A stretch of DNA of 64,000 nucleotides, from the NCBI GenBank assembly GCA_026023565.1, contig JAPETS010000045.1:62001-126000 (forward strand), given 5' to 3'. Shown piece after piece: positions 1-16,435 of the stretch. The stretch's first letter is position 1. Each line of letters begins with the position of its first letter. The notes under the pieces are model-generated. The model had not been told where the DNA came from and did not search any database. It saw nothing but the letters and a program-made list of their open reading frames with translations. Position numbers and translations under genes: made by a program. This DNA comes from Cirrosporium novae-zelandiae (taxonomy: Eukaryota).

Positions 1-1081
1 GTACAAGGATAAAACAACTGTTTTTTAATTGCTGGCTCAATACGATGCCCTCTCGATTATACATCTCCTTTTCACGTACAGACTTAAGATTTTCCCTTTT
101 TTGATACTCCCTACTATATATGATTTCAACGGTGGCATTTTTTTATAACTTTTAGTGAGTGTCCAGCTGTCTAAAGCTCCGACGAGCAATACCCCTTTTC
201 CTTTCCTTTTCTTACTCTATACAAACTCTAGCTAGTCTATTCTCTTTTTTTTCCAGTCATTTTCGTTTCGTTATATAAAGCTGTGCTGTGTGCTGTGCTG
301 CATTTTGTTTTCCTTATTTTCGTTGGCAGGTGAAAAAAAAATTACAACAAAATATGGATTGGGCGTTTTTTTTTTTTTTTGATAAGCTTTTATGAGTGAA
401 TAGTCTTAACATATTTTCCTTTTTAGGAAGTTTCATATCAATGCATTTTTTTTATTTGAGAGTGTTTTGATTTGTGGGTTGAAGTTGCGCTTGTAAGAGT
501 GGGGGGGAGGGAGGGCAAGTAGATGGATGGTACGTTGTTGTACGATTCTATTTAATAGATGTCAGCGTTAGTGGAGTTGTGTGGGTAAGTGGTGGGTAGT
601 AAAGGTGGAATGGATATGTATCCATACCCTGAATGAAGGAGGTGGAGATGTGGCAAGCAGATAGTGAAGGAGGTATAGGGGGTTGATGAGATGAGATGAA
701 GATATGATGATTATCTTTTGAATTTGGATTTTGTAATTAGGTATGTTAGCTTAGGTATAGCTGGCTAGGTTGGTAATATTTGATTCCCCATCTGTGAACT
801 GTGAATTGTGTACTGTGAGCAATGATCTTTGGTAGGAGATGTCGTGATAAGTAGATTAAGTCTTTGAATGAGACTTTTTTGGAGAGATAGAGTAATGGAA
901 AGGGTGTATTCTGTATGTATGTATATTAAATTTTGCCTCTTCAGAGTTGGGATGTGTGCAGTTAGTGGGTAATTATTCATGTAGCTATCCATTTTTTCAT
1001 TAAATTGATAGGAGGGAGTAGATATTAATTTTCATCTATCACAGTAATAGTATACTACATGACAATGCAGGGATCGTTTCT

Positions 1082-2861
<1,780 letters not shown>

Positions 2862-3286
2862 TCAATTTATACCAGATCTACCTCCTACATCTTCCTTGCG
2901 AGGAGAAAAGTCTTTTGGCTGGACACAAGAAGTTGAGTAAGCTGGAGAGCTTGTGACGGCGAAGATTAGTAAAAAGGAGGAATGTTCGCAATTCCCCGCT
3001 GGTTGGTCTTGTCACACCGTACGTACTGTACATATTATTATTTTCATCGCCTAATCTTTACTCCCGAATCGCGGGCTTCATCTCGTCGCTAGTTATTGCC
3101 TTCGGCGACTTAATTAAACGCGGGGACATGGGAGTGCTAGTTTCCCAGGAGACTATCAACCGGGCTTTCACATGCAGCATATTACTTATCACGGCGGATT
3201 ACATCGTTATATTTGCAGCTCAAAAAATATAGAGATATTTATATATAGACTAAATCTGTTTCCTGTTAGTAAAAAGGTAAAAATGT

Positions 3287-3393
3287 TGGACATTCTGGGA
3301 ATTGAACCCAGGACCTTTCCCAAATCAGATTTATAACGGACGAGAGCGCTCACAAAATGCGAAGGGAAAATCATACCCCTAGACCAAATGCCC
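3287..3393 (-). tRNA. tRNA-Ala(CGC) with an intron of about 35 nt
   Basis: Minus strand reads GGGCATTTGGTCTAGGGGTATGATTTTCCCTTCGCA-[intron]-TGGGAAAGGTCCTGGGTTCAATTCCCAGAATGTCCA. Acceptor stem has the G3:U70 alanine identity pair; anticodon stem TTCCC/GGGAA; TTCAA T-loop; T-runs downstream. Confidence 0.93.
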
Positions 3394-4187
3394 GTGTGAT
3401 TGGTAGACTAGGTTTTATCTGTCATTCATATTCTAGCGAGAATCTGGCATCCTCTGAAATTATAACACCAGGAGCATGAAATAGGGATGCCAACGTCGTG
3501 TCGCATTTTGAATATCAAGTAAGGTTTTAAAATGGATTTGTCGGAATGTTCCGCCAATAGATGAGTGTGGATGAATAACATCGCCGAGCATTACCATGAA
3601 ATGACTCGATAGGTATATCGTTTTGGCCGTTTTATATCAACACAAAAAAAGTGGGTAGTCACTTCTTTGCTTCTTTGAGTTGTAGCAGAAAGTAGTAGGT
3701 ATGTTGTAATTAATTACTGTACGCTATGAAACATGTTTGGTAACTCTCGTCATTATAACTTTGTATATGGTTATTTTGTTCGATCGGTTCCTTAAATCGA
3801 AACTGGTTCTAAGCCAATATGGGGGGTGCCGAAATTAAGGCTAGACCAGTGATGATGGATCATGACTTAACAATGTGACAACTCAGCGGATATTGACCTG
3901 AAGAAGATGTGTTGTCACTATGTCGAAGCCCATATGCAATCATCCTAGACCTTTCAACCTAGCATATTTATAACCCCAACGTCTGTCTATACAGCGATCC
4001 CCACATTACTTCTCCTTCTTATTTGTTGAGCTGGTATCTATCCAGGCTTGGGTTGTCCTGACAAGAAAAATGACGAAGCATTCGCCTTCTTGCGACTTCG
4101 TTGATCCTAATAGGCTGTGAAGAATTGTGGTCATAATGCCACTGCGGACTCATATTTCCATCGTGCTACCTTTGCTCAAGGCCGATA

Positions 4188-6386
4188 CTATGGCAACATT
4201 CTGCTTGGCCCGTGTGAGCCCATTGCGACTTGAATCCTTCTTGCAATTTCCAGCAAAAGTCCCTCCCTGAAAGCTGGTCCAACCACTGAAATTCCGAACG
4301 GAAGTCCTCCAGCCGTACCAGCGGGAATGGCAATAGCTGCAAGGTCTAACACATTCACAGCACTAGCAAATGCACCTAATTCCAAATTTGGTCCGATCGG
4401 ATCCTCTTCAACTTCCTTTATCGTTGGGTGCCTCGGCGCAGTTGGTACAATCAAAACATCGCATTTATCGAACTCCTTTTCCATTATCCGGGTAAGTCGC
4501 TGTGCCTCGTATAAATCATTGAAAGCAGTGCTAGCCGTGAAACTAGAAGCTGAGCTTAGAACTTTGCGAGTTACTGGAAGGAGTGCTGATTTGTTTTCTT
4601 CTTTCTCTATAAACGTACCAAGGGTGGCCATTCTTTCAGCCACAAACGCACCCTTGTACACCAAATCAGAGGCAGCAAGATAGGCGTCAAAATTGAAGTC
4701 AGTTTGATCAGCATGTGGGAGTTGACGAAGTGCAGCTTTGACCTTTTCGAATTGTAAATGGTATTCAGAGCAAAGCTTTTCCTTCAGTACGTTATCCGGA
4801 GGTACAGAGAAGGTGAATTTACTCTCCTCATGCAACAACGCCCTATTTGAAAGGGCGGTTAGCGGCCGAGAAGCTCGAGAATATGAATCTTCTGGATCAA
4901 ATGATTTTGCGATAAGCCACGCCGCTTTTGCGCTAACTAATGTTTTTGCGAATATAGACACACAGTCTAAAGTTTTGCATGCGGGAACCACTCCTAGAGC
5001 TGATATAGTACCTTTTGTTGGCTTCAAACCCACAATTCCATTGAATCCGGCTGGTATACGACCAGAGCCGGCTGTATCGGTACCTAATGCAAAAGAAACC
5101 TGACCGAGAGCAACAGCATTTGCAGACCCTGAGCTAGATCCGCCGGAAACACGGGTTCTATCATAAACCGAGTAGCATGCACCATATGGTGACCTTGTAC
5201 CGACTAAACCGGTTGCGAACTGGTCAAGGTTTGTTTTACCTATGATAATTGCACCAGCTCTCACAAGTTTGTCGACAACGAACGCACTTTTAGCAGATTT
5301 ATAAGAGAAGGCCGGGCAACCCGCTGTAGTATTCATTCCAACGACATCGATATTGTCTTTGATAGCAAAGGGAATACCATAGAGAGGAAGATTGAGGTTT
5401 CGGTGCTTTTCAAGGTCTTCAGCTCTAGAAAAAGCTTCCTCACCAGCCAGGCTAATCCAGATAGATGGATGGTCTGCAGTATTTGAGCTTATCTTTTCAA
5501 AGGCTTTTTGAATCACTGTCACAGGGGAGAGACCGGCTGCATACTCCTTCTTCAGAACGTCAATATCCATGGATCCATCCCATTCTGACACTTTGGTGCT
5601 CTTTCTTCTTGTCGAGAAGGATGCCAAGGCCGGTAAAAGTGCCTTAGATGTACTCACGAAACCGAAGAGACCTTCAGAGAAGCGAATCATGTCCAGGGAT
5701 GCTGTTTTGAATGTGGACACGAATCCATCTGTACAATCACTTAGAATACAGGCATCAAATCCCCTATCATTTGCTTCCCTGACAGTTGTTGTCACGCAAC
5801 ATTCAACTGTTACCCCTGCAACGATGATATGGGTAATTCCTCGGTCTACTAGTTGTTCATGTAGTCCTGTGGAGAAGAAACTTCCTTTTCCAGGCTTGTC
5901 AATCACAATCTCATCAACCAAAGGCTGCAATTCATCGATTATATCATGCCCATATTCATTTCTGGTAAGAAGTCGACCCATTGGGCCTTCATCACCGATG
6001 ACGGCACTGTGACGGGTCTTTGGGGCGCGAGCTTGCCGGATAAGTTTTGGTGTCGGACAATCGCGAAGATCCGGCCTATGTCCTTCGCGGGTGTGAATAA
6101 CTTGTAGGCCGCATTCTCGAAAGGCCTTCAAGATAGCCAAGGTGGGCTTAATAGTAGCTTGAACTGTTTCCACACCTGCATCTCCAGCTTGGATGTACCC
6201 AAATCCATCTTTTAGTAAAAAGTCTCGCTGCATGTCAATGATGACGAGCGCCACACGTTGTGGATGGAACTTGAATGTGTAAGGGTTTGCATCAAAGGAT
6301 ATATAGCTATCATCTTTCATAAAATAGCTATCTTGAGTCGAAAGTAACGGAGATGATGCGGGAGAAGCTATTGCAACGGGAGTCAT
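4188..6386 (-). CDS. Intronless fusion: isochorismatase-family cysteine hydrolase (biuret/triuret hydrolase-like) plus allophanate hydrolase (amidase signature), about 732 aa
   Basis: N-domain has IIDMQRDF, HTREGH, IDKPGKGSF, AGVTVECCV and REANDRG (Asp-Lys-Cys triad). C-domain has GIPFAIKDNID, GKTNLDQFATGLVGTRSPYG, GGSSSGS and GTDTAGSGRIPA (AtzF/Dur1,2-type). First in-frame ATG is at 6386; the ORF track starts at a non-ATG codon. Confidence 0.9.
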   Translation of the reverse strand: MTPVAIASPASSPLLSTQDSYFMKDDSYISFDANPYTFKFHPQRVALVIIDMQRDFLLKDGFGYIQAGDAGVETVQATIKPTLAILKAFRECGLQVIHTREGHRPDLRDCPTPKLIRQARAPKTRHSAVIGDEGPMGRLLTRNEYGHDIIDELQPLVDEIVIDKPGKGSFFSTGLHEQLVDRGITHIIVAGVTVECCVTTTVREANDRGFDACILSDCTDGFVSTFKTASLDMIRFSEGLFGFVSTSKALLPALASFSTRRKSTKVSEWDGSMDIDVLKKEYAAGLSPVTVIQKAFEKISSNTADHPSIWISLAGEEAFSRAEDLEKHRNLNLPLYGIPFAIKDNIDVVGMNTTAGCPAFSYKSAKSAFVVDKLVRAGAIIIGKTNLDQFATGLVGTRSPYGACYSVYDRTRVSGGSSSGSANAVALGQVSFALGTDTAGSGRIPAGFNGIVGLKPTKGTISALGVVPACKTLDCVSIFAKTLVSAKAAWLIAKSFDPEDSYSRASRPLTALSNRALLHEESKFTFSVPPDNVLKEKLCSEYHLQFEKVKAALRQLPHADQTDFNFDAYLAASDLVYKGAFVAERMATLGTFIEKEENKSALLPVTRKVLSSASSFTASTAFNDLYEAQRLTRIMEKEFDKCDVLIVPTAPRHPTIKEVEEDPIGPNLELGAFASAVNVLDLAAIAIPAGTAGGLPFGISVVGPAFREGLLLEIARRIQVAMGSHGPSRMLP

Positions 6387-6525
6387 GTTTTTAAATTTTG
6401 GAATGAAGCGCAAACAGTGCACAGAAAAGAGGACAAATAGCAGAGTATGAAAGCTGTATGGAATATTGCTGACTCTTAGCTTGTCTAAACTATTATTGAG
6501 GAATACTTATTCGTTTTGGAGGAGA

Positions 6526-6699
6526 TGATAGGAATTGTTTGGACAATTGCACAAGATTGCCCGCGGTCATCAAATAAGCTCATGCTGTTGATAAGATTAG
6601 ACCCTGTAAGCCCCACATTTCGGGTTATCGCCCCGTGCGCCCGTCGGATCGGGCTGCTGCAGGCCCCATCTAATCATGGCCGCGGCGATTTCGTTATCA
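6526..6699. promoter_or_regulatory. Cluster of HGATAR (AreA/Nit2-type) sites and CCGCGG motifs in the divergent promoter of the hydrolase fusion and the NCS1 permease
   Basis: TGATAG 6526, TGATAA 6589, TTATCG 6625, TTATCA 6694; CCGCGG at 6561 and 6680. Confidence 0.55.
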
Positions 6700-6934
6700 G
6701 CATAGCTAGCTAAAACCTATGAAAGTTTAAGCCATTGTTTTGATTGAAAATGTTTCCATTCCAAGTAGTATTTAGACTCCAGGGTTCAGAGGAACCAGTT
6801 CGTACGGTGACCAAAGAGGAATCCCAATTGTTTTATTTGTCTTTTCAATCGTGAGTTCTGAACATCTTAATTAAGGAGTGTTTGGAGCCCAGGAACTACA
6901 GTTAAAAGAAACGGTCCACTTACAAACTATCACT

Positions 6935-8703
6935 ATGACCCAAAAGCAGATCTCGGAGAGGGTTGAGAATATTAAACAGGATATATATGTGAAGGCAACG
7001 TCCCGAGATGCTTGGGTGTTACCAAAACAGCCAACAACTTTTGCACCGCCGGGGACTTGGACGAATATCGACAATGATGTGACACCGCTACATCGACGAA
7101 CCTGGGGTCGATGGACAATTATCGGCTACTGGCTGTCAGATATACTGAGTGCTCAGTCATGGGAGGGAGCATCGACCATAATCTCCGTTGGATTAACCTA
7201 TCGAGAAGCCATCCTATGTCTGATCATGGGTACGGTTATTGTTGCTATCCCTATGTGTCTGAACGGTGCGATCGGAGCTAGGCTGCGTGTCCCCTACCCC
7301 ATTGCTTCCAGGTCAAGCTTTGGTTATTATTTCTCCCGCGTGCCAGTCGTTATTCGAATGATTACTGCTCTCTTCTGGCATGCAATTCAAACATATGCTG
7401 GAGCGACTGCCATGACTCAGGTCATTCGTGCAATTTGGCCATCGTATCTGAATATCCCCAACCACCTTCCCGCGAGTGCTGGTATTACGACACAAGAGAT
7501 GGTCTCACATTTCCTGTTCTGGACCGTTCAATTCCCCGTTCTTCTTACACCACCACACAAGCTCAAATGGTTTTTTGTGTTCAAGGCATTTTTTGTTATT
7601 TCTGCCGCTGTGGCAACGGTTATCGGTATGTGCAGTCTTGCTGGAGGGAGCGGAGATATCTGGGATCAGACGACAAAATATCACGGCTCCGAAAAGTCTT
7701 GGCTCATCATGGCATATATGTCCAGCATGACAGGTTTGTTTTTCTGTGAACGATTACATTGAATCGAGTATCTGACCAATGTTTTAGGTGGATGGGCAAC
7801 AATGGCTACTAACATCCCAGATTATACCCGTTACCTTAAGCAGGAAAGATCAATCTGGTTACAAGCAGCGCTTGTACCCTTCATTTGCACGTTTATTGGA
7901 ATTCTCGGGATCATAGCAACTAGTGCAAGCAAAGTTGTCTATGGAGAGTATATCTGGGACCCTCTCACACTTGCAAGCCATTGGGATGGTCCGGGTGGTC
8001 GAGCTGCGGCATTCTTTGTTGGAGTAGCATGGTGTGTCGCGCAGATAGGGGTTAACGTTTCGGCGAATGTTATCTCTTGCGCAAACGATATGACAAGCTT
8101 ATGCCCCAAATATATCAATATCCGGCGAGGAGCTATTCTAACTACCATTATCGTGAGTTCTCATTTCTTTCTCCAGAATGCTCGTGGATTAACTAGTATT
8201 TATACGAATAGGGAGGTTGGGTGATGGTTCCTTGGAAAATCGTACATTCGGCAGAAAGTCTAATAAATTTCATGGGTGCCCTATCAATTTTCCTTGCACC
8301 TATTGCTGGCATCTTGGTGGCAGACTTCTGGATTGTCAAACATCAAGCAATCGATATTCCATCGTTATATCGCCCTCATGCAAGATATCACTACCAGAAG
8401 GGCTGCAACTGGCGCGCAGCAATTTCGCTAATCATCTCACTGGGACCGAATATGCCCGGATTGGTCAATGCTGTCAACGGGGATATCAACATTGGTGGAG
8501 CATCGAAAATATATAGCTTCAATTACTTGTGGGGTTTCACGAGCGCTTTTGTTATTTATATTGTCTCCAGTTATGTATCCCCAGCCAAAGAAACGTTGAT
8601 CAAGGAATCGATTCACGACAGCGAAGAACTTTCTGAGGAAGGGGAGGAAAGACCGGAGCAGTACGTTGTGAAGACAGATATTGAGAAGACGGGACAGGTG
8701 TAG
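6935..8703 (+). CDS. NCS1-family (Fur4/Dal4-like) nucleobase/allantoin permease, 3 exons (6935-7733, 7788-8152, 8212-8703)
   Basis: WTNIDNDVTP..RRTW, SRSSFG, WATMATNIPDYTRY, N..ANVIS..ND...L.PKYINIRRG, PWK and multiple hydrophobic segments. Introns GTTTGT..TAG and GTGAGT..TAG keep the frame. Confidence 0.92.
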
Positions 8704-9658
8704 ATAAAATATACCTAATTTGTTAATTGAACTAATGATGGAGCATCGGATTGAATATATTATCCAGCTAGGATATTCCTCCTCATTGTGTTGATAAAGC
8801 AAATGCCAGGATACAATAGACACCTGATAAACTCTTATCAGCTCTGCGGAATGCGTACATAAATTAAGCTCACCAATACTCAAATTCGGATTTTCATCTA
8901 TGAATCTAAATCCATCCTAGCAACTCTTGTTCAAGGCTCAGCTGCTATGAATGGCATTAGTAACCCTAATAAAAGAACAAGGACAAAAGTAATGCCCTCT
9001 CAAGTGGCTAGTAAGTAAGATATTGAGATTCCATGAAAATCACTATGAGTAACGCTGAAAATCGAAAATAGTTGAGAGATATATACCTAAATTCCTTGAC
9101 TTATTAAAATAGTGGTAAAAACTTAAGTGGGAGTAATAGTGTGGACTTGTTCTTCTAATCACCAATGGGCATCTTATGCATAGGAAGTGCGGATGGAAGA
9201 AGGCATTGTGGCTAAAGGGTTTAATTAAGCTTTGATTAAAATATAGTGGTGACGGTCGTGTTGCGAGATTGATTGGATAGCCAAGATAGGTTGATGCCCT
9301 AGGCCTTGAAATTTCTACCCCTTATCATATGGGAAAGCCACACCAACATGTTACGTAGTACTACTATAGAAAAAAGTAAACTTATGATATACCCTAGATA
9401 GTAGAGTAAGAATGGAATTCTCCATTTCATTCAAGTTGAGGACCTGAGGGAAGTTATAGGTGAAGTTCAAATTAAGAAATTGGTCTAATATCCAATATAT
9501 ATCTATAGGAGAGGATGAATAGAGGGGAACAATCCTAGAGCAACAACAGATAGAATGTAGCTTGTAAAATGCTCTAATCTCACACAGTCTCATTCTGTTC
9601 ACTCTCTAAATTAGGAATTTGATACAAGCATGTACCATAATCCTTATACCATCCCTCT

Positions 9659-10094
9659 TTAATCAACTGTCACATCCTTGCTGGTGTCTAGCTCTTCGGA
9701 TCTTCGAAGGTCCATTGGCTTGGCCAATAGAGGTATCACATACGGATCGAATGTTTTCCAATATGGGTTGTTTAGGTGGTATTGTTGACTCTGGGTGAAA
9801 ATGTTAGCAATTTCACTGAGCAACGCTTCCAACCCTAGTTCCTCGCCTCGCGCTTTTATGTATACATGCATGCTTTGACAGTGAATAAAGAGATGTGCGA
9901 CATACACTTTCTTGTTCATAGCGTTCAACAATTGTAAATTCTCTCGAGTCGAATACGTCCTGCATGACAAACCACGAGATAGTCTCTTTATCTTTGGAAT
10001 AGACACGAGATGCTTCAATGAGTTTATTCTTAAGCTTGCGAATGGATTCGGGGTCTGACTTTGCAGTCATATGGACGGTGATTGTATAGACCAT
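9659..10094 (-). CDS. Small ABM / dimeric alpha-beta-barrel protein, about 106 aa, 2 exons (10094-9906, 9790-9659)
   Basis: Spliced product MVYTITVH...DKETISWFVMQD...FTIVERYEQES|SQQYHLNNPYWKTFDPYV fits the ABM pattern (F.ivE.Y.......H...P). Intron GTATGT...GCTAAC...CAG. Confidence 0.8.
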
Positions 10095-10460
10095 CTTGAT
10101 GAAGCAATTGGATTCAATTGACCCGAGGGAATAGTGAAAGATTTGAATTAGATGTAAGAAACTGTGGATAGATGCTGTAGGGAAGAAGGCAATTCCACGG
10201 TATTTAATGGAATATGTTGAGGGGACCCGCAGTAGACGGTCGTCACCTCATGTTACTTCTACTCCCTACCGTTCTCCCATCTCTCGTTCTCCACTTTGAC
10301 CTCAAGTCATGCTAGACACGTGCCAGACACGTGCTAGAGTAATATTTAGAGTTTTGGGTTGCTCGTACGTGCCCATTGTACCTTTGCACTGTTTGCATCA
10401 CGATCCCAACCTCAAGTCATTTAGACCATGCTAATGAGCTCCTGGGCTTTTTCTTCACAG

Positions 10461-10493
10461 ATGTCCATTGAACGTTGGAGCTATGCGCAATGA
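10461..10493 (+). promoter_or_regulatory. Upstream ORF (MSIERWSYAQ*) whose stop overlaps the TF start codon
   Basis: ATG at 10461 directly follows a putative intron acceptor (CACAG, 10460). Stop TGA 10491-10493 overlaps the main ATG 10490-10492. Confidence 0.45.
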
Positions 10494-12579
10494 GAGCTTG
10501 TGATGTTTGTCGCAAAAGGAAGCAAAGATGCGTTACACAAGAAGGCGCATCATCTTGTACTACTTGCCAAATGATTGGCAACTCGGAATGCACTTTCCTA
10601 CACCCTCCTCCACCCAAACGCCGAGTGATTGCTGGAAGTAGTAATGGCCCATCCATCGGAACCAAACAACTGGCTACTGGGAAGAGTGGATCGAAAATCA
10701 ATGTTTCGGGTCCATCTCAAAGCTTCTCAAGGTCTTCTCGCCTCGAGCCCAGCCCGGAAGCTCCCCCGCCCGCCTTCGATTATCCCCAAGAATCGATTTT
10801 AACGAAAACCCTGGGCCTAGAGAAGAGTCGATTCTCAGAATATGTTGGTCAAGGGGGAGAACAAGATGTGAACATTCTTTACGGGCAAACTGAAAATGGC
10901 AACAGTTTGTCAACTACATCACGTCCGTTGCGGTGGGTACATGAGGCCGCCCTTTTCCAAATGACACCAGACAATGCCTATTCGGGGGTTCTCGATAAAT
11001 CTGAAAGACCCGAGGATGTTAAAGTCGAGGATATTGAACAACTTGCCCATCCGCATGGGCCAGCACTGATAAAATTATATTTCAGGATTTGTCATCCATC
11101 TTTCCCCATTTTACACAAAGAAGTGTTTGTTGAAAAATACAATCGTACTTATCGTGAAATAACTCCACACTTACTTGCAGCAGTATATGCCCTCGCGGCT
11201 AGATGGTGGTCTTACGATACCAACCTTCTTCTACAAAAACGGCTGGATGAAGCTGCACTTGTTCTCATTGCTCATCGAGCAGTACAAGAATCAATGCATC
11301 GGCCGAGATTAAATACGGTTCAAGCCGGACTTCTTTTGCTACAACGACATCGAAATCCTCTTTTCACCGACAATTCTTGGACATGGTCATTTACAGCCTC
11401 CTTAATTGGACTAGGGCAACATCTCGGCCTTCATCTCGATTGTTCTCACTGGAATATACCAGAATGGGAAAAAGGCTTGAGGAAACGCCTGGCATGGGCC
11501 CTATTCACCCAAGATGCCTTCTCAGCAATGATATTAGGGCGCCCATGTTTGATTTCACTAATTGACTGGGATGTGAAGATGCTGACGCCTAATGATTTCT
11601 CAGAGAGCTCAGTAGATGAGGATTCTAGTGAGAATGCTGGTAGTGCTAGTATAGAGGATGGAAAGACACTATTTATCGAAACGGTTAAGCTTGGAGAAAT
11701 TGCTTCCCGGGTCTTGCGTGAATTGTACTCTACCAAAGCAATGGTAGAAATCACTGAACCTCAGGAGGTTCTTGCATGCGCAAAACCCCTTGGAACTCAA
11801 TTGGCCGATCTACTCAGGAATTTGCCTTCAATACTACGGATGGATAATTTACAGCCAGGTCGATTATGTGCAAATGGGTATTACCATCTTGCCCATCAAG
11901 CCACAACTGTGGCGTTACACCGCCGACTCTTATGGTCAATATCGCGCTCAACTTCTGTGGACTCTCAGTTTGTCCAATTCTTACGTGGGACCCAATTGCA
12001 GCGGGCGAGGAGTATTGTGAAATTCATTTCCAGTCTCAAATCAGAACATATGGAGGCCTTTTGGTTTTTCGCTGCGGGAGGTTGTGCGACTATGCTGGGT
12101 AGCTTCTTGGGTCTATTGCGTGTGACTAGTGAAACGCCTGAAGAATCTGAAGAACTAAAGAAGCTAATGCGAGAGTTCGAGTGGCAGCTGAGAATGAAGG
12201 CAAAGATGGGTGAATGGGTTTCGTATACACTAACTCGCCTAAGAGTTCTGGGATGGGATCACTGGAAGGACGTGGAGCCAGATGTGGTAGAATCACAGAG
12301 TGATAATAAACCATCCCTTCGTGAGCCAATACAAAAGCAAATTCTAGTTGTCGCCAACCCGGATCTAAATAGGGAGGTCAATCACGAGATTACAAATTTT
12401 GCTTCGTCAAATACTATGGCCTGGACACCAGTTGATTTTGAGGGCTTCTTTGAAAATTTGTCAGGAATAGACGATGGCTTAGTGGATTTTACACTTTCGC
12501 CAATGATGCCAGGTATATCCAAGTGTGATTCCGCTGTTTGACTTACTAAGTGTGTTCTAACGCGTATTTAGGTGATTGA
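10490..12579 (+). CDS. Zn(II)2Cys6 transcription factor with fungal-specific TF domain, Dal81/TamA-like
   Basis: CDVCRKRKQRC-x8-CTTC-x7-C cluster; LYFRICHPSFPILHK and LGLHLDCSHWNIPEWEKGLRKRLAWALF. Probable last intron 12513-12571 gives the C-terminus ...MPGD*. Confidence 0.9.
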
Positions 12580-13119: not shown

Positions 13120-14241
13120 ATGGCATTCATAAGTTTCTCGGGAAATCAATACAACGTTGTCTCGGAGAAAGCGAAAGCGGCTAGCTTCGACGAGATCCCC
13201 CTCATTGATCTTTCCTTACCCAAAGATGAAATTGTTAAACGTGTTCGTGATGCATGTACTCGAGTCGGATTCATGTATATCCAGAACCACAATGTCCCTC
13301 AAGAAGTGATTGATAGCGTGTTTAAGAGTGGGAAAGAATTCTTTAGTCTTGGCAGGAAAGCAAAGGAAGCTGTGCACTTTAAAAATGTTAAGTCCTTCAA
13401 AGGCTATGAAAGCATGGGAGGTGTATACACCGATGAAACCAAGAAACCGGACTTGAATGAAGCCTTCAGCTGGGGCTATGCTGAAGAGATGGATTTCCTT
13501 CACCCTTCTCCAGCTTCCTCCCCATCGACAACAAAACATTCTGACCTCGAGTTCATGCATGGTGCAAATCAGTGGCCATCCTCCTTACCAGGGCTTAAAC
13601 CCGATGTCAGTACCTACTTTTCACACATTCTTATTCTCGCTCGTCGTCTCATCCGCCTCTTCGCACTCGCACTTAACCTCCCCGAGACTTACTTCGACTC
13701 AATGATGGCACGACCTGGCACCATGGGGAAAATGTTACATTATCCCACCCAGTCGCCTACATCCCAGGTTGCAGAGGCTCTCGGGATTGGCGCCCACACC
13801 GATATTGAGTGCTTTACGATTTTATGTCAGGACAACAGTGTGCCTGGGTTGCAAGTGCTGAACCAAAAAGGCGAATGGATCCTTGCACCCCCAAAACCGG
13901 GAACCTTTGTCATCAATATCGGGGATATGCTTGCGCGGTGGTCAAACGACACGTTCCTCTCGACGGTGCACCGTGTTCTTAATATCACAGGTCAGGAACG
14001 ATATTCACTTCCTGTATTCATGGGACCAAGCTATGAAACCATTCTCAAGCCATTGGAGACGTGTGTGAGCGAGGAGAGACCAGCAAGGTATGAACCCATA
14101 AGTGCAGGGTTGTATGTCTGGAAGCGATTGGCTGTGTCGAGGCTAAATAAAGAGGAATTTGAGAAGCAGTTGGCACAGTTTGAAGAAGCCAAGGTTGATG
14201 TTCATGTGCATGGGGCAGACGTAGTGGAGGTTGTGGGATAA
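13120..14241 (+). CDS. 2-oxoglutarate/Fe(II) dioxygenase (IPNS/DIOX_N type), intronless
   Basis: IPLIDLS..AC..VGFMYI.NH N-domain; HTD...H iron triad (GAHTDIE, STVHRV); RxS 2OG-binding motif (ERYS); NIGDML.RWSND. Confidence 0.93.
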   Translation: MAFISFSGNQYNVVSEKAKAASFDEIPLIDLSLPKDEIVKRVRDACTRVGFMYIQNHNVPQEVIDSVFKSGKEFFSLGRKAKEAVHFKNVKSFKGYESMGGVYTDETKKPDLNEAFSWGYAEEMDFLHPSPASSPSTTKHSDLEFMHGANQWPSSLPGLKPDVSTYFSHILILARRLIRLFALALNLPETYFDSMMARPGTMGKMLHYPTQSPTSQVAEALGIGAHTDIECFTILCQDNSVPGLQVLNQKGEWILAPPKPGTFVINIGDMLARWSNDTFLSTVHRVLNITGQERYSLPVFMGPSYETILKPLETCVSEERPARYEPISAGLYVWKRLAVSRLNKEEFEKQLAQFEEAKVDVHVHGADVVEVVG

Positions 14242-14585: not shown

Positions 14586-16435
14586 ATGATAAAAGCAATA
14601 TTCTTCAGTAAATTCGACACCAAAGAAGGTGTGCCCGTATATACATCTGTTCCCATTGGAAATATTTTACTGATCCTTTCACGCAGGCCCCAAAGTCATC
14701 CACCAGGTTCCACCCAACAGCATCGTCCCCGCGCCCACCACACCACAATCCTCTCCCCCACCCCGCCCATTGATATCGTTCCCTACCGTTCGCTCCTACA
14801 TTATCCCACCGCAAGAGTTCTGCGGCCGGCCCCTTTCAATTTGCAACTCTCGACATCGTATTCTTGGGCATCCAATCTGCCTCTCCAACCCTCGGTACTC
14901 GCGAAACGAATTCATATTTAATTTCTGTGTAGTAGTAAAAGAGGATGAGGTTCGAGAATGGGGATGCTACGCGCGGGTCGTGAGCATGTTGGCAGAGCTG
15001 ATGGGAGGGCTAGAAGAAGTGGGGGGTTATTTGAGCAGAGACGAAGCCGTGGGAGAAGGAAGGGAAAATAAAGGAAGGGTATTTGCCATGTGTGAGATGC
15101 TGATGGAAGACCTGAATAATTATTCCGAGTGTATGATTCCTATAGGTATATATGTCCTGTCGAATGATAGATACAATATTTCCACTAACTGCCATCGCGA
15201 CAGACGATTCAAATACCCTCAACACCAAACTATTTCCTCTTCTTCCTCCACCTCCACAAATACCCCCATACAGTGTACCGCTTCTCCTAATCCAGCCATC
15301 GCTTCTCTCATCTTCCACGCTCCAGCCCTCTCTATCCCCGCCCCTGACCCCCTCCGCACTTTCCCCGGACCTCCTTCTCCTCTTACTTCTCCCCCACATC
15401 AACGGCATAAACTCTGTCGCTCGAATATCCCGTCTCGCAAATGTAAGCCTAAAAATAACAACCGAGGTCCTCCGCTGCCTACTCTGGCAGCATGCAATCA
15501 TGCTCCTCGACATCTTCAGTTTTGGTGCCGTGTACGCCTGCACCGAAGCAATCGGGGAATTGATCTCCACGGCCATGGATCCAGCAACGTCTACCACCAC
15601 CAATCCCACAGTCAACGCCACCAATACAACCTCCTTCAACAGTCCCACAACAACAACAACAACAACAACGCCCCAACAACAGCCAACTACTCCCACTGAC
15701 GGGCCGTCCCCGTCCACAACCCTCAACAGCATGATCCACGAATGCGCCGCCTACGTTCACCTACCCAATTCTTCCCCGGACATAAATCCTATCCCCGCCC
15801 ACCGACTCTGCACGCTCTTCCTTTCCCTCTCTCAAGGGAAATCTGTCCGAAGCTGGTACATTGAGAACGAATCTCTCCTAACCGACATTGATGTACGGCG
15901 CTTCCTAACCTTCGGTGTCATCAAAGGCATCATCTACCGCGTGCGCAAATACGCTGTATTAGTAGGTCCCAGCGGCGAAATTCTCAAAACAAGAAGGAAA
16001 AAAGGCTCCTTCTTCGGCTCTGTCACCACGACTGCGGGCGGAGGTGGTGGAGGAGAAAGAAAAAAAGATAGAGATATCCCAGACGAAGCCCACCATCACC
16101 TACAACCGCAACAGCAACCATACCAACATCAACAGCATACTCCAAACTCCCAACACCAATACCAATACCACCATCACCACCACCACCAACAACAACAACA
16201 ACAACAACAACCACAATATCAACAACATCAGCACCAAGAAGACCCACAACCCCCATCCCACAACTCCCTAAGCAACTCCTTTTCTGTCGATGGCCCCGGT
16301 ATCGATCTGAGTAGGTACCTAGATGGTAAACATCCGTTTGACCAAATCAGCACTGAGACGGGGCTTACGGAGCGCGAGATACTTAGGGAATTGAGACGGT
16401 GGGGGGGCGGGGAAGTGCAGATTTTTTGTCGGTGA
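14586..16435 (+). CDS. NPR2: Nitrogen permease regulator 2 (SEACIT/GATOR1 subunit), 3 exons (14586-14628, 14687-15145, 15204-16435)
   Basis: MIKAIFFSKFDTKEG|PKVIHQVP, YSRNEFIFNFC, EDLNNYSECMIPI|DDSNTLNTKLFP, IDVRRFLTFGVIKGIIYRV, LDGKHPFDQI. Confidence 0.92.
15647..15669 (+). repeat. (ACA)n trinucleotide repeat encoding poly-Thr in NPR2
   Basis: acaacaacaacaacaacaacaac seen directly. Confidence 0.9.
16166..16230 (+). repeat. (CAC)/(CAA) repeats encoding poly-His/poly-Gln in NPR2
   Basis: HHHHHHQQQQQQQQ tract in the NPR2 frame. Confidence 0.9.

Follow-up and report, generated by a model that had tools for sequence, protein, structure and literature searches.

To our knowledge, the hydrolases of biuret and triuret have so far been characterized only as stand-alone bacterial enzymes, and fungal allophanate hydrolase is known from urea amidolyase, which depends on ATP and biotin. 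Here, we describe a gene of the fungus Cirrosporium novae-zelandiae that joins, in one reading frame, a cysteine hydrolase of the biuret and triuret hydrolase lineage to an allophanate hydrolase domain. The gene lies at positions 4188..6386 on the minus strand of a 64,000-nucleotide stretch (GenBank assembly GCA_026023565.1, contig JAPETS010000045.1, positions 62,001 to 126,000 of the forward strand), which is referred to as the window and in whose numbering its coordinates are given. With slightly better than even confidence, we read the predicted product as an ATP-independent bifunctional amidohydrolase that would degrade a biuret-type ureide via allophanate to ammonia and CO2, and the neighboring genes as forming a nitrogen-scavenging cluster with it. 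The chemistry and the folds are known, but the architecture, the active-site signature, and the genomic context are new.

The closest described relatives of the N-terminal domain are the triuret hydrolase TrtA of Herbaspirillum sp. BH-1 (6XIX/6XJ4/6XJE), with which it shares the fold family, and the biuret hydrolase BiuH of Rhizobium leguminosarum bv. viciae 3841 (6AZO), to which it is 46% identical. TrtA is a stand-alone bacterial enzyme, whereas the fungal protein is eukaryotic and fused to an amidase domain. The product of TrtA, carboxybiuret, decarboxylates to biuret, for which a separate BiuH is then needed (PMC7948467, cited in part). The product of BiuH is allophanate, the expected substrate of the second domain of the fungal protein.

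That second domain resembles AtzF of Pseudomonas sp. ADP (4CP8) and the allophanate hydrolase of Granulibacter bethesdensis (4GYR) over the whole amidase domain, including the catalytic triad and the residues aligned with a Tyr/Arg pair. Unlike these two enzymes, the fusion has no PF21986 C-terminal domain and carries an N-terminal cysteine hydrolase instead. The urea amidolyase Dur1,2 (Kluyveromyces lactis, 5I8I) is, like the fusion, a fungal multidomain protein of which one part makes and the other hydrolyzes allophanate, but it acts on urea with ATP, biotin, and bicarbonate, whereas the fusion is without a carboxylase and its upstream step would be hydrolytic. The amidase domain also scores higher on bacterial allophanate hydrolases than on its counterpart in yeast Dur1,2. 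A preliminary description of this gene, made from the sequence alone, had started from the premise that fungal allophanate hydrolase is normally fused to urea carboxylase; this is not always so, since stand-alone fungal amidases of the allophanate hydrolase type exist (PMC3073912, in part).

A single gene joins two hydrolase domains

The open frame covers 4188..6422 on the minus strand when counted from an in-frame GTG. Read from its ATG at 6384-6386, it is a single exon that runs uninterrupted through 732 codons to the stop at 4188-4190. An identical 732-residue protein is already in the protein collection, and 27 full-length homologs can be aligned with it end to end, with no stop or frameshift between the domains. 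The single intronless frame holding both domains that the preliminary description had proposed is thus borne out. Pfam places an Isochorismatase domain (PF00857) at residues 46 to 246 (E value = 5e-36; 124.7 bits against a cutoff of 27) and an Amidase domain at residues 310 to 712 (E value = 5e-81) and finds no further domain in the frame at an E value of ≤0.01. The two parts are separated by a linker of ~13 residues (about 258 to 270; 5577..5615, minus strand). It fills the gap between residue 257, where the isochorismatase-like (IHL) match ends, and residue ~272 to 273, where the match to allophanate hydrolase begins, and both its length and its sequence differ among the homologs. All of the motifs on which the original proposal rested are present in the translation, namely, IIDMQRDF (D51), IDKPGKG (K164 and K167), TVECCV (C197), REANDRG, MIRFSEGLFG (residues 233 to 242), and DQFATGLVGTRSPYG (residues 388 to 402).

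As had been claimed, no part of a urea carboxylase (biotin carboxylase, carboxyltransferase, or biotin carrier) was found in the fusion frame or in the 20 open reading frames (ORFs) of at least 300 residues in the window. Downstream, between 2800 and 4190, no ORF on either strand is longer than 106 residues and none resembles the C-terminal domain of allophanate hydrolase. The interval from 2862 to 4187, ~1.3 kb 3' of the fusion, holds no ORF longer than 91 residues on either strand, no tRNA, and no recognized feature, and there are no tRNA genes in window positions 1-12000.

N-terminal cysteine hydrolase domain

The IHL cysteine hydrolase domain (residues 28 to 257; 5616..6305, minus strand) is placed in the BiuH/TrtA lineage by its matches to solved structures and by its position in a tree. 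The best solved match is TrtA (6xix; 205.6 bits, E value = 8e-60), followed by Rhizobium BiuH (6azo; 189 bits, E value = 9e-55), a Rhodococcus biuret hydrolase (6xjm; 177.1 bits), and RutB (8bkd; 72.9 bits, E value = 3e-19). Models for nicotinamidase and YcaC reach only 21 to 27 bits on this domain, compared with 227 for the BiuH model. Pairwise identities are 50% to an Escherichia coli plasmid enzyme, 46% to the enzyme of plasmid pKHPS1 (the same value as for Rhizobium BiuH), 41% to a TrtA-like protein of Rhizobium, and 28% to RutB, and the candidates cannot be told apart by pairwise identity alone.

Residues were mapped with the TrtA numbering of PMC7948467 and the HMMER alignment to 6xix and 6azo, in which the chain number is the paper number plus 3. 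The catalytic residues correspond to D51 (6234..6236, codon verified; TrtA D24, BiuH D36), K164 (5895..5897; TrtA K129, BiuH K142), and the nucleophile C197 (TrtA C162, BiuH C175), the codons of C196 and C197 occupying 5796..5801, all on the minus strand. D51, K164, V192, T193, and C197 are invariant across 28 aligned fusions, and the Asp-Lys-Cys triad, which the preliminary description had called intact, looks so in the alignment with both bacterial enzymes. K167 (5886-5888, minus strand) corresponds to TrtA K132 and BiuH K145. F56 and E101 match TrtA F29 and E72, and V192-T193, as read from the sequence, has the same residues as TrtA V157-T158, a cis-peptide in TrtA.

Positions that discriminate between the two bacterial enzymes give a mixed picture. 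Against the TrtA consensus (F35, N41, A134, E160, Y187, and I205), the second-shell residues F62 and E195 agree, F222, still an aromatic residue, and L240 are conservative changes, and G68 and S169 disagree; G68 adjoins a two-residue insertion. Against the BiuH consensus at the same positions (Y47, Y53, Ser, D173, Thr, and V218), only the Ser, S169, matches, although an equivalent of BiuH F41 is also shared. At S237-E238 (codons 5673..5678, minus strand), where BiuH and TrtA have Gln-Gly, S237 takes the place of TrtA Q202 and BiuH Gln215, and C196 takes that of TrtA V161.

As references for the tree, we used Rhizobium BiuH (537 bits to 6azo), the TrtA ortholog encoded next to it (279 bits to 6xix), E. 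coli RutB, the pKHPS1 enzyme, and the E. coli plasmid cysteine hydrolase; pKHPS1 is recorded as a carrier of guanylurea hydrolase (PMC9800807, Table 1, in part). We left out 39 domains from proteins of 301 to 599 residues and rows with more than 40 gaps, and near-duplicates were removed at identities above 70 to 72%, or above 95% for tandem-domain proteins, with the references and P0001 always retained. In the final IQ-TREE phylogeny of 72 rows, rooted on RutB (support given as ultrafast bootstrap/SH-aLRT), all 24 fungal N-terminal domains form a single clade (100/99). The sister group, made up of 16 rows (100/99), contains the Rhizobium TrtA ortholog; the union has support of 98/75, and the fungal clade stands beside the TrtA-type clade, not within it. 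None of the 24 fungal rows falls in the BiuH-type clade (98/83), which, like the guanylurea hydrolase clade, lies outside. The domain therefore does not group with generic isochorismatases or nicotinamidases, and its nearness to TrtA, suggested in the preliminary description, is seen both in the best structural match and in the tree.

Allophanate hydrolase domain

The amidase-signature domain (residues 271 to 722; 4221..5576, minus strand) passes the NCBIfam subfamily model for allophanate hydrolase, NF006043 (PRK08186), with 532.9 bits against a cutoff of 487, covering model positions 6 to 448 of 600. It matches AtzF with 345 bits (E value = 5e-102), the Granulibacter enzyme (4gyr) with 339 bits (E value = 3e-100), Kluyveromyces allophanate hydrolase with 302 bits, and Kluyveromyces urea amidolyase with 299.5 bits; the GatA model reaches 219 bits, compared with 533 for allophanate hydrolase.

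K343 (5358..5360), S417 (5136-5138), and S441 (5064-5066), all on the minus strand and with verified codons, are invariant in 28 fusions. From their spacing of 74 and 24 residues, we take them to be the Lys, the cis-Ser, and the nucleophilic Ser, respectively, of the Ser-cisSer-Lys triad of amidase-signature enzymes. The second hydrolase domain therefore looks catalytically intact, in line with the Lys-cisSer-Ser amidase with an allophanate hydrolase signature described before. Y577 and R585 (Y577 to R585, 4632..4658, minus strand) align with a Tyr and an Arg of 4gyr that are separated by the same distance of eight residues. Among the aligned fusions, R585 never varies, and at least 90% have Y577. 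The 4gyr residues are presumably Tyr299 and Arg307 of the Granulibacter enzyme, which we take to bind the carboxylate of allophanate.

What had escaped the preliminary description is that only the amidase part of allophanate hydrolase is present. The protein terminates at the end of the amidase domain, and the model for the C-terminal domain (PF21986, AH_C), which does detect this domain in another IHL protein (P0244), finds no match in the fusion protein. AtzF truncated at residue 467 (AtzF467), the end point of which is that of the fungal fusion, is as active as full-length AtzF (PMC3944691, in part), and the missing domain thus need not disable the enzyme.

A fungal family with an altered substrate pocket

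The fusion is not a singular protein but belongs to a widespread fungal family of at least 120 proteins. All of the homologs listed for the whole protein, at least 120, carry both Pfam domains. They come from Eurotiomycetes (Paecilomyces, Talaromyces, Capronia, and Exophiala), Dothideomycetes (Zymoseptoria, Cercospora, Pyrenophora, Macrophomina, Elsinoe, and Hortaea), Leotiomycetes, lichen fungi, Orbiliomycetes, and Basidiomycota (Hebeloma and Hygrophoropsis), and many of the holders are plant-associated fungi. The window protein is 57 to 71% identical to 24 of the listed homologs and 44 to 48% identical to all the others. Their automatic names are inconsistent and include "glutamyl-tRNA amidotransferase subunit A," "nicotinamidase-related amidase," and "urea carboxylase." One UniRef entry from Talaromyces marneffei (P0016) is a 1277-residue model consisting of the fusion and ~570 further residues without a Pfam domain, probably a merged gene model. 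A Leotiomycete-type ortholog (positions 10500-10700 of metagenome locus L007) has an intron within a catalytic motif, between GVTTE and CCV, at a site where the window gene has none.

In BiuH and TrtA, a Gln contributed by the neighboring subunit binds the distal amide of the substrate (PMC7948467 and PMC5806882, both in part). The HMMER alignment has IRFSEGLFG in the window protein where 6xix has LTAQGGIVG and 6azo has VKMQGGVFG, which bears out the earlier remark that the QGG motif is missing. To follow this change through the family, IHL domains were excised by profile from 392 proteins, yielding 306 domains with at least 200 profile positions, and key positions were tallied for a fusion class (proteins of at least 600 residues with the domain N-terminal; n = 134, of which one member, P0321, turned out to be without an amidase domain) and for a mostly bacterial stand-alone class (n = 116).

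The Gln at the canonical position is gone in 124 of the 134 fusion-class sequences, and its loss, like the fusion itself, is family-wide. Position 237 is Ser in 90, Tyr in 30, Gln in 10, Ala in 3, and Phe in 1, compared with Gln in 101/116 stand-alone sequences. The next position, 238, is Gln in 53, Asp in 51, Glu in 26, Asn in 3, and Gly in 1, compared with Gly in 104/116. The pocket differs elsewhere as well: position 68 is Gly in 118/134 (Asn in 89/116 stand-alone sequences) and position 196 is Cys in 132/134 (Val in 108/116), and within the fusion class, Phe62, Glu195, and Leu240 occur in 125, 133, and 133 of the 134 sequences, respectively. Fungal subclades carry the motifs WSQG, SYDG/AYDG, GQDG, and FSEG/FSDG; the window protein has FSEG, and its clade includes 20 FSEG and 9 FSDG sequences. 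In these alignments, the whole fungal family is marked by the loss of QGG, with Gln, Asp, or Glu as a polar residue at the following position, and by Cys196, where bacteria have Val. The family may be regarded as a natural experiment in moving or replacing the "critical glutamine," a question left unresolved by the work on TrtA and BiuH.

The same position varies in bacteria. In the clade of the pKHPS1 guanylurea hydrolase and a neighboring clade, all 8 rows have Glu at the BiuH/TrtA Gln position (L003:4998-5633), and Glu at this position may be a sequence marker of guanylurea-type specificity.

Gene cluster around the fusion

The preliminary description considered the fusion gene by itself and overlooked a conserved cluster. 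Divergent from the fusion lies a Fur-type NCS1 permease gene (6935..8703, plus strand) with three exons at approximately 6935-7740, 7790-8190, and 8221-8703. Its three successive ORFs together match PF02133 over profile positions 3 to 438 of 440 and score 167.7, 125.4, and 66.6 bits on TIGR00800. It is followed on the plus strand by a gene for a Zn2Cys6 transcription factor (10472..12541; PF00172 and PF04082), a candidate regulator of the pathway, and by a gene for a 2-oxoglutarate (2OG)/Fe(II) oxygenase of 373 residues (13120..14241; PF14226 and PF03171). Beyond these lie NPR2 (nitrogen permease regulator 2; 14674-16435, plus strand, split over two frames), whose position next to a nitrogen-catabolic cluster may be a coincidence, and, on the other side of the fusion, an intron-split glutathione-reductase-like gene (1155-2861, minus strand). 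The remaining genes of the window are housekeeping genes.

We scanned metagenome contigs and compared the 80 loci obtained with the window proteins by tblastn. Two near-identical fungal contigs, L006 (655 kb) and L007 (492 kb), carry a fusion of the GQDG subclade that is only 45% identical to that of the window, and the same four genes adjoin, with identities of 33 to 41% for the regulator, 56 to 73% for the permease, and 52% over 388 residues for the oxygenase. Elsewhere, the fusion has a 2OG oxygenase fragment just upstream (L008), an NCS1 permease upstream (L010), or a fungal transcription factor downstream (L036); its flanks in L005 hold no recognizable gene. Locus tags place oxygenase and fusion close together in Capronia coronata (A1O1_09260 and 09262), Talaromyces atroroseus (UA08_01345 and 01347), Paecilomyces lecythidis (004241 and 004239), and Oleoguttula mirabilis (LTR36_007316 and 007317), one or two tags apart. 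In another five oxygenase-fusion pairs, both members come from contigs of equal length. The association between oxygenase and fusion covers three fungal classes and at least three enzyme subclades.

Among solved structures, the oxygenase has generic relatives (9ovh at 157 bits and thymine dioxygenase at 121 bits), and an Atlas look-up returned generic names only. Two of its homologs are named "HxnY-like," a label that we set aside, as only a common Pfam architecture lies behind it.

Proposed function and alternative explanations

In the mechanism that we propose, Cys197 would attack a biuret-type ureide (R-NH-CO-NH-CO-X) at its end carbonyl to form a thioester, most likely with ammonia or an amine leaving, and water would then cleave the thioester to give allophanate or an N-carboxy-ureide closely resembling it. 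This allophanate-type product would be deamidated by Ser441 of the amidase domain, and the leftover N-carboxycarbamate would decay spontaneously to CO2 and ammonia, a step for which the C-terminal domain of allophanate hydrolase would be dispensable. The Fur-type NCS1 permease would serve in uptake and the Zn2Cys6 factor in regulation, and the 2OG/Fe(II) oxygenase would probably make or unmask the ureide. Because the Tyr/Arg pair, with its presumed role in carboxylate binding, is conserved, the intermediate would be expected to carry the carboxylate of allophanate.

Bacterial gene neighborhoods are consistent with such a pairing of activities. Of the 80 metagenome loci, 10 have a bacterial TrtA-type gene (AQGGIFGW motif) and an allophanate hydrolase gene no more than ~1.7 kb apart; at many of the others, the contig is too short for this neighborhood to be judged. 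The proximity speaks for a functional link between these two types of enzyme. In the bacterial pairs, the allophanate hydrolase gene usually comes first; in the fungal fusion, the order is reversed and the C-terminal domain of allophanate hydrolase has been dropped.

An ATP-independent bifunctional enzyme was also the reading of the preliminary description. Its domain lineages, its catalytic residues, and the replaced Gln have held up, whereas the Dur1,2 premise called for correction, and the handing over of an unstable product to the second domain is at most a possibility. In yeast urea amidolyase, allophanate diffuses through the solvent and is not channeled (PMC5770610, in part).

Several observations weigh against our reading. 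The canonical Gln position is Ser237 in the window protein; the exchange of this Gln in BiuH (Q215A/E) raises the Km more than 25-fold (PMC5806882), and TrtA Q202E loses more than 95% of its triuret activity, along with a 10-fold gain on biuret (PMC7948467, in part). Since the pocket also differs in N41 to Gly with the two-residue insertion and in V161 to Cys, the product may not be allophanate. Both domains fall short of an equivalog model: the N-terminal domain scores 227.1 bits (the whole protein, 223.7) on the BiuH model NF050097, with a cutoff of 370, and the amidase domain scores 491.6 bits on TIGR02713, with a cutoff of 511.05, over model positions 2 to 412 of 563 only. Simple biuret hydrolysis requires no oxygenase. 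Nor does the link to the oxygenase appear to be obligate, as orthologs of the oxygenase (50 to 55% identity) also occur in yeasts and Sordariomycetes outside the at least 120 listed fusion holders. In bacteria, homologs of the oxygenase (36 to 45% identity) were examined at 80 loci, and no IHL gene lies within 8 kb at any of them; one locus has a weak amidase match.

A possible, though doubtful, alternative is plain scavenging of biuret or triuret, the simplest candidate substrates: the N-terminal domain would be a generalist, the fusion would mineralize environmental biuret or triuret from urea fertilizer, s-triazine breakdown, or urate oxidation around plants, and the neighboring oxygenase would be irrelevant or serve another step. 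The structural matches and the tree, in which TrtA and BiuH are the nearest solved relatives and the TrtA clade is the sister, fit this explanation, as does the plant association of many holders. A generalist BiuH from Rhodococcus takes both biuret and triuret (PMC7948467, in part), biuret at 50 mM is turned over by AtzF itself (PMC3944691, in part), and in the WSQG and GQDG subclades, a Gln is retained at the canonical position or directly beside it. However, the canonical Gln is gone in 124/134 sequences, the entrance loop is altered, and the cutoff of the BiuH model is missed. Nor does plain scavenging account for the conserved clustering of the fusion with a 2OG oxygenase in three fungal classes.

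The cluster is our main clue to a substrate beyond simple environmental biuret. We tentatively consider, as a rather less probable extension of the proposed function, that the four genes make up a eukaryotic pathway, so far undescribed, that acts on an N-heterocycle or ureide and in which the Fur-type permease would import the substrate, the 2OG/Fe(II) dioxygenase would oxidize or open it, and the fused enzyme would strip off all of the nitrogen via allophanate without urea, urease, ATP, or biotin. The imported compound may then resemble a nucleobase; one example would be a pyrimidine in which N1-C2-N3-C4(-N4) already make up a biuret or allophanate skeleton. The family-wide change of the distal pocket, with the loss of Gln together with Gly68 and Cys196, would mirror the new substrate. 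A ureide made by the oxygenase from an imported heterocycle would explain the cluster. By analogy, we infer a similarity to the E. coli Rut pathway (RutA, RutB, and RutG), which likewise combines a nucleobase permease, an oxygenase for opening or activating the ring, and an isochorismatase-like hydrolase acting on the ureide that results, but which uses a flavin oxygenase instead of a 2OG/Fe enzyme and has no allophanate hydrolase step; RutB is the outgroup of our tree. The neighbors of bacterial oxygenase homologs also hint at a nucleobase-type substrate but are not decisive: among 13 such loci scanned, a Bmp/PnrA-type binding protein was found in 4, other ABC transporter parts in 3, and XdhC with an NCS1 permease and an amidohydrolase in 1, from Acetobacter.

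It is improbable that the subclade of the window protein acts on a cationic or amidine-bearing ureide, either of the guanylurea type or a ring-opened product of the cytosine or guanine type, bound by the acidic E238 (Asp in relatives). The idea draws on the Glu at the Gln position in 4/4 rows of the clade of the pKHPS1 enzyme, whose plasmid is the one recorded with guanylurea hydrolase (PMC9800807, Table 1, in part), and in 4/4 rows of the neighboring clade, on the Glu or Asp one residue later in the clade of the window protein (FSEG and FSDG), and on the NCS1 "cytosine permease" genes that go with such bacterial pathways. But the acid is offset by one residue, the sister subclade with the same four-gene cluster has Gln instead (GQDG in L007), and the fungal clade lies apart from the guanylurea hydrolase clade in the tree. 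Moreover, hydrolysis of guanylurea yields guanidine, which is not a substrate of allophanate hydrolase (PMC9800807, in part).

Finally, the inconsistent database names might suggest unrelated jobs for the two domains (a nicotinamidase- or isochorismatase-type hydrolase and a generic amidase) or two genes joined in the model, but we regard this as very improbable given the profile scores (21 to 27 against 227 bits, and 219 for GatA against 533), the single frame, which has no stop and requires no internal start, the fusion kept in at least 120 proteins of Ascomycota and Basidiomycota, and the adjacency of both gene types in bacteria.

Significance

Among the papers listed by our literature searches, no title or abstract describes a fungal isochorismatase-amidase fusion or the cluster, although fungal homologs or fusions may be mentioned by Robinson et al. 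2018 (Environ Microbiol) and by Aukema et al. 2020. The word "isochorismatase" is absent from the paper on fungal amidases, PMC3073912, and PMC10805520 and PMC13768756 mention biuret but not a fungal enzyme. Many fungi of soil, plants, lichens, and rocks have a fused enzyme that is, by prediction, independent of ATP. The permease, oxygenase, and dedicated regulator genes clustered with it suggest a dedicated fungal route, so far unnamed, for a nitrogen-rich ureide.

If the substrate is biuret or triuret, the family bears on the fate of fertilizer impurities and urate oxidation products in soil, and the gene could be used in plants, as a trait carried by one gene, for biuret tolerance or for selection, a purpose for which bacterial BiuH has already been employed (PMC7700744 and PMC13155557, both in part). 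If, on the other hand, the oxygenase makes the substrate, the cluster would represent a new nucleobase-type catabolic pathway in eukaryotes.

Related loci and domain combinations

Some bacterial loci encountered in the searches deserve mention in their own right. In Acetobacter sicerae (L159:6099-11727), the oxygenase homolog lies between XdhC/MobA-like genes and genes for an NCS1 permease and an amidohydrolase, and in Shinella sumterensis (L102:5649-11581), it lies between Bmp/PnrA-type binding protein genes and an amidase-signature gene.

On an E. coli IncF plasmid (NZ_CP141198.1; L004:5986-12645), a TrtA-type hydrolase that is 50% identical to the N-terminal domain of the window protein stands at the head of a cluster that also holds genes for DUF2877, FdrA, DUF1116, carbamate kinase, and a cytosine permease, and the same hydrolase is found on 78 E. 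coli plasmid records. The cluster looks like an oxalurate- or oxamate-type carbamoyl pathway fed by some ureide. A plasmid of Rhizobium leguminosarum (NZ_CP030763.1; L001:4726-13290) carries an operon-like array of genes for a BMP-type ABC transporter, formamidase, BiuH, cyanuric acid amidohydrolase, the TrtA ortholog, and a cupin, with no annotated allophanate hydrolase within 9 kb.

BiuH/TrtA-like IHL domains also occur in other fusions. P0244 joins AH_C to a BiuH-type and a TrtA-type domain, P0334 has two IHL domains and an AlkB-like 2OG oxygenase, P0285 combines an amino acid/carbamate kinase and P0349 a ureidoglycolate lyase with IHL, and P0241 to P0243 are tandem IHL pairs.

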